18,099 nucleotides of DNA, taken from the sequence record PV455607.1. One strand, written 5' to 3'. Shown piece by piece: positions 1,825-16,531 of this stretch (position 1 is the first letter of the stretch; every line of letters begins with the position of its first letter). Below the pieces are notes generated by a model that was given only the letters and a program-made list of their open reading frames with translations, had not been told where the DNA came from and ran no database searches. The position numbers were made by a program, and so were the translations under genes. This DNA comes from Enterococcus phage vB_EfaP_2/Chl-5.

Positions 1825-2670
1825 TTGACAGTAAGAATATCAAAGAACGATAGAGCGAAGTTAGAGAAAATCTATGGAAAGTCTAACAAAGCTCGTAAAA
1901 AGTACAACCGTTTAAGACAAAAAGGAGTTGAGGAAAGGCAACTACCAACTGTTCCAACATCAAAGAAAAGACTTATTGACTACGTAAAATCAACAAATAT
2001 GAGTCGTAGTGATTTTAACAAGTTGTTAGATGAGTTGGTAGACTTTGCACAGCCTTACAACGAGAATTACATTTTTGAGATCAACAAGCGAAATGTTGCT
2101 ATCTCAAGAGCGCAAATCAAAGAAGCGCAAATTAAAACAGAGCAAGCTCAAAAAGCAAAAGAAGAACACTACAAAGAGCTTAACGAACTTCAGATTAAGA
2201 AGCCAACAGAAAACACAATTGTCACACCAACGATTTTAACAGAGTTAGGTGCGGACTTACCTTTTCAAGCAATACCAGATTTTAACATTGATTCTTTTAC
2301 TTCTCCAGAAGGAGTTCAGTCTTATTTAGAAAATATAGGAAAACAAGACGAACAATATTTTGATGAAAGGGATCAGCTTTATTATGACAATTTCAGACAA
2401 GCGATGTTTACTATTTTCAATTCAGACGCTGACGACATTGTTCGTTTACTTGATTCCATGGGGCTTGACCTATTTATGAAAACCTATGTTACCAACTTCT
2501 TGGACATGAACCTTGACTACATTTATGATGAAGCAGAAGTACAACAGAAAAAAGAACAAGTTTACAGTAAGATTGCAAAAGTGATCGAATCTGAAACAGG
2601 TGGAGAAGTCCCCTCATATAACCCCACGAAGAACATCACAATTAATTCAGAAACAGGAGAAGAATTATGA
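1825..2670 (+). CDS. gp3: Terminal protein (primer for protein-primed replication); start probably TTG 1825 after RBS GAGGTG (track start TTG 1810)
   Basis: VRISKNDRAKLEKIYGKSNKARKKYNRLRQKG parallels the phi29 TP N-terminus (IRIKDNDKAEYARLVKNTKAKIARTKKKYG, recalled). It is about 281 aa, against 266 aa in phi29. Its stop overlaps the polymerase start (ATGA). There is no in-frame ATG near the 5' end, so a non-ATG start is inferred. Confidence 0.8.
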   Translation: MTVRISKNDRAKLEKIYGKSNKARKKYNRLRQKGVEERQLPTVPTSKKRLIDYVKSTNMSRSDFNKLLDELVDFAQPYNENYIFEINKRNVAISRAQIKEAQIKTEQAQKAKEEHYKELNELQIKKPTENTIVTPTILTELGADLPFQAIPDFNIDSFTSPEGVQSYLENIGKQDEQYFDERDQLYYDNFRQAMFTIFNSDADDIVRLLDSMGLDLFMKTYVTNFLDMNLDYIYDEAEVQQKKEQVYSKIAKVIESETGGEVPSYNPTKNITINSETGEEL

Positions 2671-4388
2671 TTAAGAAATATACAGGCGACTTTGAAACAA
2701 CAACTGATCTCAACGATTGTCGTGTATGGTCGTGGGGCGTATGCGATATAGACAATGTTGACAATATAACATTCGGTTTAGACATTGATTCTTTTTTTGA
2801 ATGGTGCGAAATGCAAGGTAGTACAGATATCTATTTCCACAACGAAAAATTTGATGGAGAGTTTATGCTTTCATGGTTATTCAAAAATGGTTTCAAATGG
2901 AGCAAAGAAACGAAAGAAGAAAGAACATTCTCTACATTGATATCAAATATGGGTCAATGGTATGCTTTGGAAATTTGTTGGGAAGTTAATTACACAACAA
3001 CAAAATCAGGTAAAACGAAAAAAGAGAAAGTTCGAACGATCATCTATGATAGTCTTAAGAAATACCCATTTCCAGTCAAACAAATTGCAGAAGCTTTTAA
3101 TTTTCCTATAAAAAAAGGCGAAATAGATTATACAAAAGAAAGACCTATTGGTTACAAACCGACAAAAGATGAGTGGGAGTATTTAAAGAACGACATTCAG
3201 ATTATGGCAATGGCATTAAAAATTCAATTCGATCAAGGACTAACTCGAATGACTAGAGGAAGTGACGCTTTAGGCGATTACCAAGATTGGGTAAAGACCA
3301 CATATGGTAAATCAAGATTTAAACAATGGTTTCCTATTTTGTCTTTAGGGTTTGATAAAGACTTACGTAAAGCATACAAAGGCGGCTTCACTTGGGTAAA
3401 CAAAGTTTTTCAAGGGAAAGAAATAGGCGATGGCATTGTCTTTGATGTTAACTCTTTGTATCCCTCTCAAATGTATGTAAGACCTTTACCATATGGAACA
3501 CCTCTATTCTATGAGGGAGAATACAAACCGAACAACGACTATCCACTTTACATTCAAAATATCAAAGTAAGGTTTCGTTTAAAGGAGGGTTATATTCCAA
3601 CCATTCAAGTTAAGCAAAGCTCATTATTTATTCAAAACGAATATCTTGATTCGAGCGTAAACAAACTTGGAGTCGATGAATTAATTGATCTTACACTTAC
3701 AAACGTTGATCTTGAGTTGTTCTTTGAACATTACGACATTTTAGAGATACATTACACGTATGGTTATATGTTCAAAGCTTCTTGTGATATGTTCAAAGGC
3801 TGGATCGATAAATGGATCGAAGTAAAGAACACCACTGAAGGAGCTAGAAAAGCGAATGCTAAAGGTATGTTAAATAGCTTGTATGGAAAGTTCGGAACAA
3901 ACCCTGACATTACAGGAAAAGTGCCTTACATGGGCGAGGACGGCATTGTTCGATTGACACTAGGAGAAGAAGAATTAAGAGATCCTGTTTATGTTCCGCT
4001 TGCTAGTTTTGTGACGGCTTGGGGTAGATATACTACCATTACAACCGCTCAAAAATGTTTTGATCGCATTATTTATTGTGATACAGATAGCATTCATCTA
4101 GTAGGAACAGAAGTTCCAGAAGCAATCGATCACTTGGTTGATCCTAAAAAACTTGGTTATTGGGGACATGAAAGCACATTTCAACGAGCAAAATTTATTC
4201 GTCAGAAAACATATGTCGAAGAAATTGACGGAGAATTAAATGTAAAGTGTGCTGGTATGCCAGATCGAATAAAAGAGCTTGTAACCTTTGACAATTTTGA
4301 AGTTGGTTTTTCAAGCTATGGAAAGTTGCTACCGAAAAGAACACAAGGTGGCGTGGTATTAGTAGACACAATGTTTACAATCAAATAA
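2667..4388 (+). CDS. gp2: Protein-primed family-B DNA polymerase (phi29 p2-like)
   Basis: Exo I DFETTT, Exo II HNEKFDGEFM and Exo III YLKNDIQI are present. So are motif A DVNSLYPSQMY, motif B KGMLNSLYGKFG, motif C YCDTDS and KxY RQKTYVEE. At 573 aa it compares with 575 aa in phi29. Confidence 0.95.
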   Translation: MIKKYTGDFETTTDLNDCRVWSWGVCDIDNVDNITFGLDIDSFFEWCEMQGSTDIYFHNEKFDGEFMLSWLFKNGFKWSKETKEERTFSTLISNMGQWYALEICWEVNYTTTKSGKTKKEKVRTIIYDSLKKYPFPVKQIAEAFNFPIKKGEIDYTKERPIGYKPTKDEWEYLKNDIQIMAMALKIQFDQGLTRMTRGSDALGDYQDWVKTTYGKSRFKQWFPILSLGFDKDLRKAYKGGFTWVNKVFQGKEIGDGIVFDVNSLYPSQMYVRPLPYGTPLFYEGEYKPNNDYPLYIQNIKVRFRLKEGYIPTIQVKQSSLFIQNEYLDSSVNKLGVDELIDLTLTNVDLELFFEHYDILEIHYTYGYMFKASCDMFKGWIDKWIEVKNTTEGARKANAKGMLNSLYGKFGTNPDITGKVPYMGEDGIVRLTLGEEELRDPVYVPLASFVTAWGRYTTITTAQKCFDRIIYCDTDSIHLVGTEVPEAIDHLVDPKKLGYWGHESTFQRAKFIRQKTYVEEIDGELNVKCAGMPDRIKELVTFDNFEVGFSSYGKLLPKRTQGGVVLVDTMFTIK

Positions 4389-4400
4389 GGAGGACTAATA

Positions 4401-4571
4401 ATGGATTTATATAAAGCAATATTTATTGTACGTGATGAAGGAACGATTGACGGTTACGCTACCGAACACTTTGTTGATATTTCTTTACACGACTTTGAAG
4501 AAATCTATGGAAAAGAAACACGTGAAATTGAAGCAGTAACATTAGTAAAAACAGGAAATTTCAAAAAATAA
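4401..4571 (+). CDS. 56-aa acidic ORF missed by the ORF track; possible phi29 p56-like uracil-DNA-glycosylase inhibitor (DNA mimic)
   Basis: Strong RBS AAGGAGG (4389-4395) 5 nt before ATG 4401; stop TAA 4569-4571. Translation MDLYKAIFIVRDEGTIDGYATEHFVDISLHDFEEIYGKETREIEAVTLVKTGNFKK has net charge about -5. ISLHDFEEIYGKETREIE resembles the LSLSDFEVLYGNTADEII segment of phi29 p56 as I recall it. It is the same length (56 aa) and sits in the same genomic position, after the polymerase and before the pRNA. Confidence 0.55.
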   Translation: MDLYKAIFIVRDEGTIDGYATEHFVDISLHDFEEIYGKETREIEAVTLVKTGNFKK

Positions 4572-4575
4572 ATTA

Positions 4576-4604
4576 TTTACATCCTTTGCAAAGTATGGTA
4601 AAAT
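4576..4604 (+). promoter_or_regulatory. Promoter TTTACA (4576-4581), 17-bp spacer, extended -10 TGgTAAAAT (4596-4604) driving a short non-coding transcript
   Basis: Read directly. No ORF follows. A strong terminator lies about 160 nt downstream. Confidence 0.55.
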
Positions 4605-4610
4605 ATTCTT

Positions 4611-4767
4611 GTGATAGTTGACAAGAGTCAAATTTGGCGAGATTGGGCGAATGTACACGTGAAATATCGTGCGCTCCCGTTAAGTTATGGACACATAAAC
4701 GTTTTGACCGTCAACCAATCGCAAAAACCTTTTAGGAGTAGCCCTTAAATGTGGCTACTCTTTTTTT
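4611..4767 (+). ncRNA. Candidate packaging RNA (pRNA-like), about 155 nt from predicted TSS to terminator
   Basis: It is a promoter-to-terminator unit without coding capacity at the position adjacent to gene 2 / p56 where phi29 encodes pRNA. Internal hairpins are TTGAC-AAGA-GTCAA (4618-4632), GTTTT...AAAAC (4701-4728) and the terminator stem. Its 5' GTTGAC/GATTGG segments are complementary to its 3' GTCAACCAATC. Confidence 0.45.
4736..4767 (+). terminator. Rho-independent terminator (stem GAGTAGCC 4736-4743 / GGCTACTC 4753-4760, 9-nt loop, T7 4761-4767)
   Basis: Read directly: perfect 8-bp GC-containing stem followed by seven T residues. Confidence 0.75.
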
Positions 4768-4783
4768 GTGTTTCACAGAATTA

Positions 4784-4799
4784 TGTTTCACGTGAAACA
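4784..4799. promoter_or_regulatory. parS: Perfect 16-bp palindrome TGTTTCACGTGAAACA matching the bacterial parS (ParB/Spo0J) consensus tGTTNCACGTGAAACa
   Basis: Read directly. A GTTTCAC half-site lies at 4770-4776. ACACGTGAAAT occurs at 4518-4528 and 4655-4665. The palindrome overlaps the -35 position of the late promoter. Confidence 0.6.
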
Positions 4800-4815
4800 G
4801 TTTTTATGGTATAAT
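4787..4815 (+). promoter_or_regulatory. Late promoter: extended -10 TGgTATAAT (4807-4815) with a poor -35 (TTCACG)
   Basis: Read directly. It lies 24 nt upstream of the scaffold-gene start and heads the whole late operon. Confidence 0.6.
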
Positions 4816-4838
4816 AGAATCAAAAGGAGGTGGAGATT

Positions 4839-5129
4839 ATGGAAATTAAAGAACATGAAGCAATTCTAAATGGTATTCTTGAAAGTGTCACAGACGGTGA
4901 AGCAAGATCAAAGATTGTAGAACATCTTGAAGCATTGCGAGAAGACTACGGAGCAACAACTGAAGCTTTGACATCAGCAAATAGCACACTTGAGAAGTTA
5001 AAGAAAGATAACGAAGCGTTGGTGATTTCAAACTCAAAATTGTTCCGAGAACGAGCGAGCGTAGAACAACCAGAAAATAACGAACCAGAAACAGACCAGA
5101 ATATTACACTAGATGATCTAGGAATTTAA
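4839..5129 (+). CDS. gp7: Head scaffolding protein (phi29 gp7-like); start ATG 4839 (track GTG 4830 lies inside the RBS)
   Basis: AGGAGG 4825-4830 then an 8-nt spacer to ATG. VISNSKLFRE matches phi29 gp7 IVSNSKLFRQ (recalled). It is about 96 aa, acidic and coiled-coil-like. Confidence 0.8.
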   Translation: MEIKEHEAILNGILESVTDGEARSKIVEHLEALREDYGATTEALTSANSTLEKLKKDNEALVISNSKLFRERASVEQPENNEPETDQNITLDDLGI

Positions 5130-5142
5130 GGAGGAAACAAAC

Positions 5143-6471
5143 ATGGCAGATAAAATCACAGAACAAGATGTTCTTAACGCCACAAATGTAGAAACACCAG
5201 TACAATTAATGACTGCTATTTATAATAGCTCATCATCTCTTTTTCAAGCGAACGTACCTATGCCAAATGCAGATAACATTCAAGCGGTTGGTGCTGGGAT
5301 CACACGTTTAGATGTAGTAAAAAATGAATTTATTTCAACTTTAGTTGATCGTATTGGTAAAGTAGTTATTCAATACAAATCATGGCGAAACCCTTTGAAA
5401 ATGTTTAAAAAAGGAAACATGCCTTTAGGTCGAACGATCGAAGAAATTTTTGTTGACATTGCACAGGAACATAAATTCAATCCTGAAGAATCTGTTACAG
5501 GTGTATTTAAACAGGAAGTTCCCGATGTAAAAACATTGTTTCACGAAATTAATCGTGAAGGTTACTACAAACAAACGATCCAAGAAGCATGGTTAGAAAA
5601 AGCATTTACTTCATGGGATAATTTCAATAGTTTCGTTGCTGGTGTAATGAATGCTTTATACACAGGCGATGAAGTAAGTGAATTTGAATACACGAAATTG
5701 TTAATAGCAAACTACCAAGAAAAAGAGTTATTCAAAGAGATCGAAATTGGCGAAATTAATGAATCAAATGCAAAAAATTTTATTCGTAAGATCAAAGCAA
5801 CATCAAACAAACTTGAATTTATGAACAATTCTTACAATGCACAAGGTGTAAGAACATCAACAGCTAAAGCCGACCAATACGTTATTATTGACGCTGACAC
5901 TGACGCTACAATTGACGTTGACGTTTTAGCAGCGGCATTCAATATGAGTAAAACTGACTTTGTAGGACACAAAATCGTTATTGATGAGTTTCCTAAAAAA
6001 GAAGGCGAAGATTCGTCAAATATTGTGGCAGTTATTGTAGATAGTGAGTGGTTTATGATCTATGACAAATTGTACAAAACAACAAGTCTATACAACCCTG
6101 AAGGCTTATATTGGAATTATTGGTTGCACCACCACCAACTATATTCTACTTCTCAATTCGGGAACGCCGTTGCTTTTGTTAAATCAGCAACAAAACCTGT
6201 CACAAAAGTTGCTTTTGCAAGTGCAACAGCTACTGTTGTTAAAGGTTCATCTAAAGATATCGCATTGACATTTACACCAGCAGAAGCAACAAACCAAGAA
6301 GGAGAAGTAGTTTCATCAGCACCAACATTGGTTAAGGCAACCGTAAAACAAACAGCAGGTAAAGCGACTGGCGTAACCGTAGAAGGCTTAGAAGTCGGTC
6401 AATCATTAGTAACATTCACAGCTATCGGAGGTCAACAAGCAACGGTTCTTGTTACGGTTACTTCTGACTAA
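5143..6471 (+). CDS. gp8: Major capsid protein (phi29 gp8-like) with C-terminal Ig-like Big_2 domain
   Basis: [15 protein letters not shown]...[21 protein letters not shown] parallels phi29 gp8 (FITSLVDRIGLVVIR...[21 protein letters not shown]). The C-terminal 80 aa are rich in T/V/A beta-strand residues, typical of Big_2. It is 442 aa, against 448 aa in phi29. Confidence 0.95.
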   Translation: [442 protein letters not shown]

Positions 6472-6482
6472 GGAGGACAATT

Positions 6483-8311: not shown

Positions 8312-9292
8312 ATGAGTAGACGAAAAGGTGCAGGACTTGCTAGAAATAACCGTTATACAGCAAAAAGCAGACCTTATCCAAACGAACCCTATTCAAGTGA
8401 TGTAGAAGAAATCAGCTACTATGAACATTATCGTAGACAACTCACGCTCCTTACGTTTCAGTTGTTTGAATGGGAAAATTTACCGAAATCAATTGACCCT
8501 CGATATTTAGAAATTGCATTACACACAAATGGTTATCTCGGTTTCTTTAAAGATCCTACACTAGGGTTCATGGTTTGTGCAGGAGCAGAAGATGGCCAAA
8601 TCGATCATTATCACAATCCTATTTTCTTTACAGCAAATGAAGCAATGTATCACAAGAGATATCCTGTTTTAAGATATGATGATGATGATGACAAATCAAA
8701 ATGTATCATGTTGTATAACAATGATTTGAAAGTTCCTACACTACCGAGTCTTCATCGGTTTGCTTTGGATATGGCAGACATAAACCAGATATCACGAGTG
8801 AATCGAAGAGCGCAAAAAACACCTGTAATTATTCAAACTGATGAAAAGAAATACTTCTCATTGCTACAAGCTTATAACCAAATTGACGAAAATAATCAGG
8901 CTGTTTTTGTGGATAAAGATATGGAGTTTGACAAAGCTTTTAATGTGTGGCAAACAAATGCACCTTATGTAGTGGATAAACTAAGATCAGAATTGAACGA
9001 AGTATGGAATGAAGTCTTAACTTTTCTAGGTATCAACAATGCCAACGTAGATAAGACTGCACGTGTACAAACATCAGAAGTCTTATCTAACAACGAACAG
9101 ATTGAAAGCTCAGGAAACATCTTGTTAAAATCAAGAAAAGAGTTTTGTGATCGTGTAAATCGTGTCTTTGGCGATGAACTTGACGGAAAGATTGACGTGA
9201 AGTTTAGAACGGACGCGGTGCGACAATTACAACTAGCAGCAGGTCAATCAAAAAAAGACCAAATGAGTGGAGGGTTGCCAAGTGCTACTTAA
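8312..9292 (+). CDS. gp10: Head-tail connector / upper collar (portal, phi29 gp10-like)
   Basis: [21 protein letters not shown] parallels phi29 gp10 ([21 protein letters not shown]). Also [23 protein letters not shown] and FLGI.NAN match gp10. It is 326 aa. Confidence 0.92.
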   Translation: [326 protein letters not shown]

Positions 9293-15488: not shown

Positions 15489-15499
15489 GAGTGTATAGT

Positions 15500-16531
15500 A
15501 TGACAAATAGCTTAGGCGTTAAACTTAAAGAGAAAAACTTATACTATAGTCCTAACAATGCTTTAGGTTTCAATTGCCTAATGTTATTTGTTATAGGGGC
15601 GCGTGGTATAGGGAAAACATATGGATATAAGAAATTTGTTGTTAATCGTTTTATAAAACATGGCGAACAATTTATTTATTTAAGAAGATTCAAAACAGAG
15701 CTTAAAAAGATTCCTCAATTTTTCAAAACAATGGCGAAAGAGTTTCCGGATCATAAACTTGAAGTAAAAGGAAAAGAATTTTATTGTGATGATAAATTAA
15801 TGGGCTGGGCTGTTCCGCTTAGTACGTGGGGAATTGAAAAGTCTAATGAATATCCAGATGTTCGCACAATTTTGTTTGATGAGTTTTTAATTGAGAAATC
15901 AAAGATCACTTATTTACCAAATGAAGCTGAAGCCTTGTTGAATATGATGGAAACTGTTTTTCGTGATCGGACTAATACTAGATGTATTATGTTAAGCAAT
16001 GCAACGAGTGTAGTCAACCCTTATTTCTTGTATTTCAATCTACAGCCAGATTTGAATAAGCGTTTTAATCTCTATCAAGATCGAGGTATTTTGATTGAAT
16101 TGTGTGATTCTAAAGACTTTGCAGAAGTGAAGAAACAAACACCGTTCGGAAGGTTAATACGTGGTACAGATTATGAAGATTTCAGTATCAACAATGAATT
16201 TGTTAATGATAGTGATACATTTATTGAAAAGAGAAGTAAGAATAGTAGTTTTCTATGTGCAATTGCTTTTGAAGGGAAAATATTTGGTTATTGGATAGAC
16301 GCGGAAACGGGTTGTGTATATGTGAGTTATGATTATCAACCAAATACAAACCATTTTTATGCAATGACTACAAAAGACCATGAGGAAAACAGATTGTTGA
16401 TGAAAAATTGGCGGAATAATTATTATCTTTCAACAGTGGCGAAAGCATTCAAAAATAGTTATTTACGGTTTGATAATATTGTTATTAAGAATTTACATTA
16501 TGACTTGTTTAATAAGATGAAAATCTGGTAA
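15500..16531 (+). CDS. gp16: DNA packaging ATPase (phi29 gp16-like); start ATG 15500 after AGGAG (track GTG 15491)
   Basis: Walker A GARGIGKT is present. Extensive collinearity with recalled phi29 gp16 (VIGARGIGKS...NRFIKYGEQFIYVRRYK...EFPDH...GWAIPLS...EKSN.YP.V.TI.FDEF). Confidence 0.93.
   Translation: MTNSLGVKLKEKNLYYSPNNALGFNCLMLFVIGARGIGKTYGYKKFVVNRFIKHGEQFIYLRRFKTELKKIPQFFKTMAKEFPDHKLEVKGKEFYCDDKLMGWAVPLSTWGIEKSNEYPDVRTILFDEFLIEKSKITYLPNEAEALLNMMETVFRDRTNTRCIMLSNATSVVNPYFLYFNLQPDLNKRFNLYQDRGILIELCDSKDFAEVKKQTPFGRLIRGTDYEDFSINNEFVNDSDTFIEKRSKNSSFLCAIAFEGKIFGYWIDAETGCVYVSYDYQPNTNHFYAMTTKDHEENRLLMKNWRNNYYLSTVAKAFKNSYLRFDNIVIKNLHYDLFNKMKIW

Follow-up and report, generated by a model that had tools for sequence, protein, structure and literature searches.

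Positions 4610-4767 of the genome of Enterococcus phage vB_EfaP_2/Chl-5 (PV455607.1) encode a real, conserved and structured non-coding RNA of two domains, located between the early genes and the scaffold gene. The whole stretch analyzed, referred to here as the window, is an essentially complete 18,099-bp genome of an Athos/CUB-FM-like, phi29-like podophage of Enterococcus faecium. The RNA is in our view probably the packaging RNA (pRNA) of the Athos-like Enterococcus phages and, read in this way, is a divergent subtype of pRNA and not a new class. We favor this reading because the RNA has a covarying pRNA-like fold and lies in the pRNA slot, because genes for the packaging ATPase gp16 and the connector gp10 are present and because the genome contains no other pRNA candidate. 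A preliminary description of the sequence had already named the region a candidate pRNA, a proposal that is supported by covariation, by architecture, by a p56-like neighboring gene and by a slot shared with the pRNA of a colinear viral contig, L033.

A conserved two-domain RNA

The elements of the RNA and its promoter are listed below. RNA position n corresponds to window coordinate 4609 + n.

4576-4604, + strand: RNA promoter; -35 TTTACA (4576-4581), 17-nt spacer, extended -10 TGgTAAAAT (4596-4604)
4610-4767, + strand: predicted transcript of ~158 nt; 5′ end placed at ~4610/4611, 3′ end in the U tract
4610-4632, + strand: A helix, 5′ strand (4610-4615, 4617-4622, 4627-4632), with a 4-nt bulge AAGA at 4623-4626
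4633-4649, + strand: C arm, 5′ strand (4633-4639, 4641, 4645-4649), with internal loops; pairs with 4672-4684
4650-4655, + strand: 5′-only bulge AAUGUA (RNA 41-46), equivalent of the CE loop, with nothing opposite; family consensus RAUGUR
4656-4671, + strand: E hairpin; 4-bp stem CACG/CGUG (RNA 47-50/59-62), 8-nt loop UGAAAUAU (4660-4667)
4672-4684, + strand: C arm, 3′ strand, contiguous with the E stem and lacking a 3′-side bulge
4685-4698, + strand: D hairpin; 5-bp stem UUAUG/CAUAA (RNA 76-80/85-89), GACA loop (4690-4693)
4703-4723, + strand: A helix, 3′ strand (4703-4708, 4710-4715, 4718-4723)
4724-4733, + strand: single-stranded linker AAAAACCUUU(U), 10 nt, unpaired in the fold
4734-4767, + strand: 3′ domain and intrinsic terminator; 10-bp stem, loop CUUAAAUGU (4744-4752), U7 (4761-4767)

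The 158-nt transcript folds at −46 kcal/mol (z = −3.4), with one of 200 shuffled sequences folding as well. Domain I comprises 114 nt (4610-4723) and is followed by the 10-nt linker and the 3′ hairpin (4734-4762). In RNA numbering, the A helix is formed by pairs 1-6/109-114, 8-13/101-106 and 18-23/94-99, and the C arm by pairs 24-30/69-75, 32/68 and 36-40/63-67. The AAGA bulge of the A helix faces a single nucleotide and lies 6 bp from the junction, and four junction nucleotides separate the D hairpin from the 3′ strand of the A helix.

Homologues of the RNA allowed us to examine whether substitutions preserve this fold. Eight near-identical genomes (97% identity) already show informative differences: G4620/C4712 is replaced by A/T in four of the eight and A4657/T4670 by G/C in L007, while the remaining substitutions fall in predicted loops or in one weak pair. 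With the addition of L013, the capsid protein of which is 80% identical, seven pairs are changed on both sides, a number reached by none of 500 shuffles; controls with slid pairing partners gave none. We further used two covariance models of the window family, R1 (built from the close set) and the broader R2, whose matches in the window span 4610-4766. Four Logan contigs found through capsid homologues with 60-66% identity (L015-L018) share the synteny of the window; in all of them the scaffold gene is preceded by a gap of 320-500 nt, and R1 matched over its full length in every one of these gaps (58-77 bits, E = 1e-11 to 1e-16).

The final alignment contained 14 distinct homologues. Standard pairs occupy 97.7% of its cells, compared with 37-46% when partners were slid, and compensatory changes were found in 37 of 50 pairs, compared with 9-13 in the slid controls; none of 500 shuffles reached any of five measures. 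The alignments had been fitted to the covariance model, and we therefore sought independent support from MAFFT/RNAalifold and from separate minimum-free-energy folds. When a plain MAFFT alignment was given to RNAalifold, the helices of the C/E arm, D hairpin and terminator were recovered and 19 of 23 pairs were compensated, and L015-L018 folded separately adopted the same architecture as the window RNA. The preliminary description had reckoned with the possibility that relatives lack any conserved structure; what we find is one fold common to all 14 distinct homologues. A search with a DNA pattern recovered all known members among the loci and no new diverged lineage, and added five Athos-like contigs of ~18 kb from metagenomes.

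Covariation is present in every helix of the RNA. The A helix has compensatory changes at 4614/4719, 4620/4712 and 4629/4706, and its outermost segment (UGUGAU/AUCGCA) carries an A-U to G-C change in L013. Covarying pairs make up 5/5 of the upper and 5/7 of the lower C arm, 3/4 of the E stem, 4/5 of the D stem and 9/10 of the terminator stem, the loop of which (CUUAAAUG) is invariant. Also invariant in the family are AUGU.C at the bulge, UGA.A.A in the E loop, the D loop GACA and the 3′ segment CGCAA, while the linker tolerates 1-nt indels among close relatives. Conservation is thereby reversed relative to that of a protein gene: stems vary and covary, and the loops and bulge are constant.

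An end-pairing helix like the pRNA A helix had been proposed in the preliminary description from complementarity of GUUGAC to GUCAAC and of GAUUGG to CCAAUC. An A helix containing GUUGAC/GUCAAC is indeed present, and this pairing is backed by a compensatory change from G-C to A-U. The GAUUGG/CCAAUC segment does not belong to it, because GAUUGG varies among relatives (GAUAGG, GUUAGG) without compensation in CCAAUC, which is fixed.

The UGU of the 5′-only bulge is complementary to the ACA of the D loop and could form three contiguous Watson-Crick pairs with it in all family members; random loops of these sizes reach three pairs in ~10% of cases. The canonical pRNAs of our set have 2-4 such bulge/D-loop pairs (mean of 3.2 for own loops and 2.3 for non-self combinations). 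Hao and Kieft give 2 bp for the bulge/D-loop kissing interaction of GA1 and 4-5 for other known pRNAs (PMC4201828), and the 3-bp kissing potential of UGU/ACA lies inside this range of 2-5 bp. The sequence AAUGU occurs twice in the RNA, in the 5′-only bulge (4650-4654) and in the terminator loop CUUAAAUGU (4747-4752). Both copies could pair with the D-loop ACA or bind one protein.

The promoter claimed at the start of the unit (TTTACA-17-TGgTAAAAT) is present at 4576-4604 and is conserved in diverged relatives. It has 10 of 12 consensus matches in a promoter scan and a TG upstream of TAAAAT. Promoter-like sites are as frequent in shuffled sequence (76 expected) as in the window (74 found), and the match alone therefore carries little weight. 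Its -10 element and spacer (TTTTGCAAAGTATGGTAAA) are nevertheless kept in relatives with capsid proteins only 60-66% identical; in L013 and L015-L018 the -35 element is TTGACA, with -10 and spacer conserved, and TTGACA-TATTTTGCAAAGTATGGTAAA is almost letter-for-letter constant in the relatives with 60-66% capsid identity. Across phages with 60-80% capsid identity, the spacer (TATTTTGCAAAGTATGG) is nearly constant base for base. Such conservation exceeds what sigma-A recognition needs and may reflect either a regulator site or a strong constraint on promoter strength. At the other end, the strong terminator with its T7 tract had also been noted correctly: the stem GGAGUAGCC/GGCUACUC(U) has 9-10 bp (4734/4735-4762) and a 9-nt loop (4744-4752) and is followed by U7 (4761-4767). 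A terminator scan missed it because the loop limit of the scan was 8 nt.

Genomic slot and partner genes

Position is the strongest argument for the pRNA reading. The left early operon of phi29 contains genes 3 (terminal protein, TP), 2 (DNA polymerase, DNAP), 1, p56, 0.6 and 0.4, followed by the A1 promoter and the pRNA at the genome end, and the window order of TP, DNAP, p56-like open reading frame (ORF) and RNA mirrors this order. Of 80 phi29-like viral contigs that we surveyed for layout, most have the divergent phi29 arrangement with pRNA near the contig end on the early strand, and a minority are colinear like the window. In colinear contigs the interval from the early genes to the scaffold gene contains a canonical pRNA, as in the three listed here with their scores from the Rfam pRNA model (RF00044) and from a broader model of canonical pRNAs, R3 (see below).

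L033 (IMGVR_UViG_3300029822_000436), 4653-4768: canonical pRNA; R3 109 bits; RF00044 49 bits, E = 8e-10
L096, 3919-4035: canonical pRNA; R3
L030, 4415-4526: canonical pRNA; R3

The gene order of L033 is that of the window: TP, DNAP, small ORFs (two in L033), promoter-RNA-terminator, palindrome, late promoter, scaffold and capsid. The flank downstream of the RNA, which consists of a T tract, the TGTTTCACGTGAAACA palindrome and the ATGGTATAAT late promoter, is common to the two genomes, and the DNA running from the terminator tail up to the late promoter (TGgTATAAT) can be aligned among the window, L013 and L033. The two loci differ in that the L033 RNA is recognized by both RF00044 and R3 and the window RNA by neither, and in that domain I and the terminator are further apart in L033; their proteins are only 44-52% identical. 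Judged from these alignments, the window RNA is the positional counterpart of the bona fide L033 pRNA, with homologous DNA on its 3′ side. The position syntenic with that of the phi29 pRNA, asserted in the preliminary description, is thus borne out both by the mirrored gene order and by the Rfam-detected pRNA in the same slot of L033.

The window features surrounding the RNA and those of the packaging machinery are as follows.

Early part of the window, + strand: p6-like gene, then the single-stranded DNA-binding protein gene (SSB)
1810-2670, + strand: TP
2667-4388, + strand: DNAP
4401-4571, + strand: 56-aa p56-like ORF, upstream neighbor of the RNA
4784-4799: 16-nt perfect palindrome TGTTTCACGTGAAACA, overlapping the -35 of the late promoter
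4787-4815, + strand: late promoter TTCACG-17-TATAAT, ahead of the scaffold ATG at 4840
4840-5129, + strand: gp7-type scaffold (ATG at 4840)
5143-6471, + strand: capsid protein, a single 442-aa ORF
8312-9292, + strand: connector gp10 (Phage_connector, 296 bits)
15491-16531, + strand: packaging ATPase gp16 (Podovirus_Gp16, 455 bits, profile positions 2-331 of 331)

All replication and morphogenesis genes of the window are on the + strand, and the 258-nt gap between the 56-aa ORF and the scaffold gene is its sole intergenic non-coding stretch longer than 150 nt. Over positions 4300-5200 the window is 98% identical to CUB-FM and 95% identical to Athos, which is classified in the Salasmaviridae. 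The gp16 protein covers the Podovirus_Gp16 Pfam profile end to end, including the C-terminal end. The N-terminus of the connector is strongly basic (MSRRKGAGLARNNRYTAKSR, MSRRKG...) and presumably resembles the RKR-containing N-terminus of phi29 that is implicated in pRNA binding.

The 56-aa neighbor had been called p56-like, and it does show 31% identity over 51 aa to phi29 p56, the uracil-DNA glycosylase inhibitor (pairwise E = 6e-5). The same ORF (4401-4571) had no match in a Pfam search and no similarity to the ORF that flanks the L033 pRNA. A 58-aa ORF of L016 has a weak match to PF20763.

The palindrome downstream of the RNA is probably the operator of a regulator of early and late transcription analogous to p4. 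A half-site, GTTTCAC, is found at 4768-4774, and a second copy with one mismatch (TGTTTCACATGAAACA) lies at 1252-1267 inside the p6-like gene, which makes two matches in the window compared with 0.17 expected by chance. The palindrome is identical in L013 (~2636-2651) and in the distant colinear L033 (4889-4904). Downstream of the RNA terminator of diverged relatives, repeated CATATGAA / TTCATATGA / CATGTGAA motifs replace it (L015 ~2560-2640, L016 ~2565-2625, L017 ~2560-2600, L018 ~2555-2610 and L014 ~55-100), which suggests that the late-promoter operator diverged together with its regulator.

Two further observations concern the records of these genomes. Linear, non-mobilizable 18-kb E. faecium 'plasmids' from rectal swabs, L010 (CP063571.1) and L011 (NZ_CP019991.1), are Athos-like genomes; the same remark was made in the Athos paper, on carrier state or pseudolysogeny (PMC11210271). 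The capsid region of Athos (L001) is annotated as two coding sequences (CDSs), a 'head morphogenesis protein' (5146-5346) and a 'major capsid protein' (5421-6473), where the window and CUB-FM have one 442-aa ORF, and the split is possibly a frameshift error of the Ion Torrent assembly.

Covariance-model searches and competing readings

The Rfam model for pRNA (RF00044, Phage_pRNA) has a gathering score of 100 bits. It detected the phi29 positive control with 145 bits, but B103 scored only 50 bits, Goe1 48 bits and metagenomic pRNAs 30-57 bits. It found no match in the GA1 genome at E ≤ 0.1 and none in SRT01hs, and it missed the pRNA of L055. Judged on L080 (GA1), L084 (SRT01hs), L043, L039, L006, L036, L052, L055, L076 and L082, RF00044 is demonstrably narrow, and we therefore built the broader model R3. 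R3 comprises 12 canonical pRNAs, namely those of phi29 and B103 and ten metagenomic ones tied in by RF00044 E-value and/or nhmmer, and it finds pRNAs in more than 20 loci at 28-125 bits.

Several results weigh against identification of the window RNA as a pRNA. RF00044 gave no match over the whole window at gathering and none in 4500-4850 at E ≤ 10; the Rfam match, whose absence the preliminary description had named among the signs that would refute its proposal, is thus lacking at either threshold. With filters off, R3 found nothing at 4610-4767, its best match in the window being one of 10.7 bits (E = 0.89) in a coding region. As neither model matches, pRNA homology is not demonstrated at the profile level, and membership of the window RNA in RF00044 is not demonstrable. 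Reciprocal matches with the family models were sub-threshold, and L055 scored lower with R2 than with R1. The loop complementarity amounts to only 3 bp, with a chance level of ~10%, and UGU/ACA cannot covary within the family because the loops are invariant. The dimensions of the RNA also depart from those of pRNA of the phi29 type: the A helix has 18 bp compared with ~22-25, the C arm has 13 bp with internal loops compared with ~9, the E loop has 8 nt compared with 6, the D loop has 4 nt (GACA) compared with 5, and the four junction nucleotides all lie between D and A, with none between C and D, whereas pRNA has UUU between C and D and none on the other side.

The reciprocal matches are suggestive all the same. 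In a search of ~0.94 Mb on both strands, R1 matched the L055 pRNA (139-305) at its exact full-length boundaries with 20.1 bits (E = 0.077). R2 matched no canonical pRNA with default filters; with filters off, the pRNAs of L055 and L052 (47-213), 3′ domains included, came second and eighth among its 29 weak matches, with correct boundaries. These matches exceed what would be expected from position alone; homology is not established by them. Neither RF00044 nor R3 with filters off found a pRNA elsewhere in the 18-kb genome. Weak Rfam matches to sbrA, snoU13 and MicX were rejected, as they reflect only the terminator hairpin or chance.

If the RNA is a divergent pRNA, its function can be sketched by analogy with phi29, from which its transcription, prohead binding, ring formation and requirement for packaging are all extrapolated. 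A strong promoter of its own, at the far end of the early operon (TP, DNAP and p56-like ORF), would drive transcription of the RNA, which would stop at the RNA's own terminator. Domain I (4610-4723) would fold into a three-way junction, of which the C/E arm and the D hairpin would dock on the connector at the prohead vertex, and contacts between the UGU of the conserved bulge and the ACA of the D loop would link neighboring RNAs. The A helix, pointing outward, would carry the ring of gp16 ATPases by which TP-capped DNA is pumped into the prohead, and the RNA would leave after packaging.

A more tentative thought is that the RNA represents a second, structurally distinct lineage of packaging RNA that kept the three-way-junction plan of pRNA and adopted another contact code. 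The code might then reside, though this is doubtful, in the invariant loops (the RAUGUR bulge, the GACA tetraloop, UGAAAGAYA and CUUAAAUG, the last of which repeats the AAUG(U) of the bulge). On this idea the ring would depend chiefly on contacts with protein, or else on a kiss of a minimal 3 bp, and the 3′ domain would join in the assembly.

The failure of both pRNA covariance models to detect the RNA would also fit a structured phage small RNA that sits in the pRNA slot and has a non-packaging role, in a phage that packages its DNA without RNA. Such an RNA might regulate the early/late switch, act as an anti-defense decoy or target the host; its gene is directly upstream of the late-promoter operator, and the family-invariant loops could equally be conserved for a protein or mRNA target. 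However, both the element-by-element correspondence with pRNA architecture and the slot and flanks shared with the L033 pRNA would then be coincidences, and the phage has kept a full-length gp16 with no other pRNA in its genome. We consider this explanation improbable.

The site between the early and late operons and the terminator at the end of the RNA might instead point to a leader or attenuator acting in cis on the late operon, or to a plain terminator of the early operon, and not to a trans-acting RNA. This is very unlikely given that the last early ORF is followed by a conserved promoter belonging to the RNA itself, that a separate late promoter follows the terminator and that a covarying three-way junction of ~115 nt goes far beyond the needs of a terminator.

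The preliminary description had stated that the unit contains no ORF. Taken literally this does not hold, as a 45-aa GTG ORF overlaps the RNA, albeit one that is broken in relatives.

4611-4748, + strand: 45-aa GTG ORF overlapping the RNA; CUB-FM CDS CUBFM_9

CUB-FM (L002, 4569-4706) has this ORF annotated over the RNA as a 45-aa hypothetical protein, CUBFM_9, whereas the region is unannotated in Athos (L001, 4577-4842), and neither record has a non-coding RNA feature. That the region encodes this protein is hardly credible, even though the GTG frame is open in the window and several close relatives: the frame is interrupted by stop codons in L007, L013 and L015-L018 and shifted by 1-nt indels in L004, L011 and L007, substitutions are compensatory in stems or limited to loops, the ORF has no Pfam match and no Shine-Dalgarno-like purine-rich motif (GGAGG/AGGAG) was seen upstream of the GTG. 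We rejected the ORF as a gene because its frame is broken in relatives. All rival readings fit worse than the pRNA reading.

Significance and comparison with known packaging RNAs

A 2024 review regards pRNA, as far as is known at present, as characteristic of phi29 and the Bacillus phages related to it (PMC11476376), and our literature search found no description of pRNA in Enterococcus phages. With a pRNA-type RNA in the Athos/CUB-FM-like E. faecium phages, the RNA-dependent packaging motor would span a further host genus as well as colinear genomes. Annotation can be corrected in both Athos, where the region is blank, and CUB-FM, where a protein is called, and there is a gap in detection, most natural pRNA diversity being missed by RF00044. 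A divergent natural scaffold, differing in junction, loop and helix dimensions, would be useful for comparisons of ATPase-ring positioning and for pRNA-based RNA nanotechnology. For phage therapy of vancomycin-resistant E. faecium, the RNA is probably an essential non-coding gene that should be preserved in engineering. Should the idea of a distinct lineage hold, these therapeutic-candidate phages would carry a natural pRNA variant beyond all current models.

We took the canonical plan of pRNA from the Rfam phi29 pRNA alignment and from the alignment of 12 canonical pRNAs. Beyond the dimensions given above, the bulge has 6 nt in the window RNA compared with 7-9 nt in pRNA, and loop sequences are constant within the window family but variable between phages with canonical pRNA. 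Unlike that of phi29 pRNA, the 3′ domain of the window RNA consists of one terminator hairpin, in which the CUUAAAUG loop is conserved. In its colinear genome the gene separates the early operon from the late one, whereas the phi29 pRNA is at the genome end, and the hosts are Enterococcus and Bacillus, respectively.

GA1, compared here by description only, has a pRNA that is established according to the literature and that likewise escapes RF00044. Its kissing interaction is also very short, at 2 bp (PMC4201828), but GA1 differs from the window phage in its Bacillus host and in its divergent genome layout of the phi29 type. Cp-1 of Streptococcus is, like the window phage, a non-Bacillus member of the Salasmaviridae with a colinear genome. 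Its putative pRNA (Martin et al. 1996, as cited in PMC6266182) likewise escapes a covariance model based on phi29. Neither the window-family models nor R3 found a match in the Cp-1 genome, and its region between orf7/PL1 and the scaffold gene, when folded, did not form the architecture of the window RNA.

The resemblance to phi29 pRNA extends over the whole RNA. In full-length pRNA, a domain I of ~117 nt is joined by ~13 nt of unstructured linker to a structured domain II (PMC5066667). The window RNA shows the same two-domain organization: in both RNAs, a domain I of ~115-120 nt is followed by a linker that is single-stranded and by a hairpin domain at the 3′ end. Its domain I has the architecture of pRNA, with covariation. 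Both RNAs have a three-way junction, a C/E arm with a 5′-only bulge, a 4-bp E stem and a D hairpin, and the 4-nt bulge in the 5′ strand of the A helix, opposite one nucleotide, is located 7 bp from the junction in canonical pRNA and 6 bp from it in the window RNA. The E loops are U-rich/purine in both (UUGAGU in phi29 pRNA, UGAAAUAU in the window RNA). Finally, phi29 and the window phage are alike in the partner proteins gp16 and gp10, in placing the RNA under its own promoter at the distal end of an early operon that contains DNAP and perhaps in the short complementarity between bulge and D loop.

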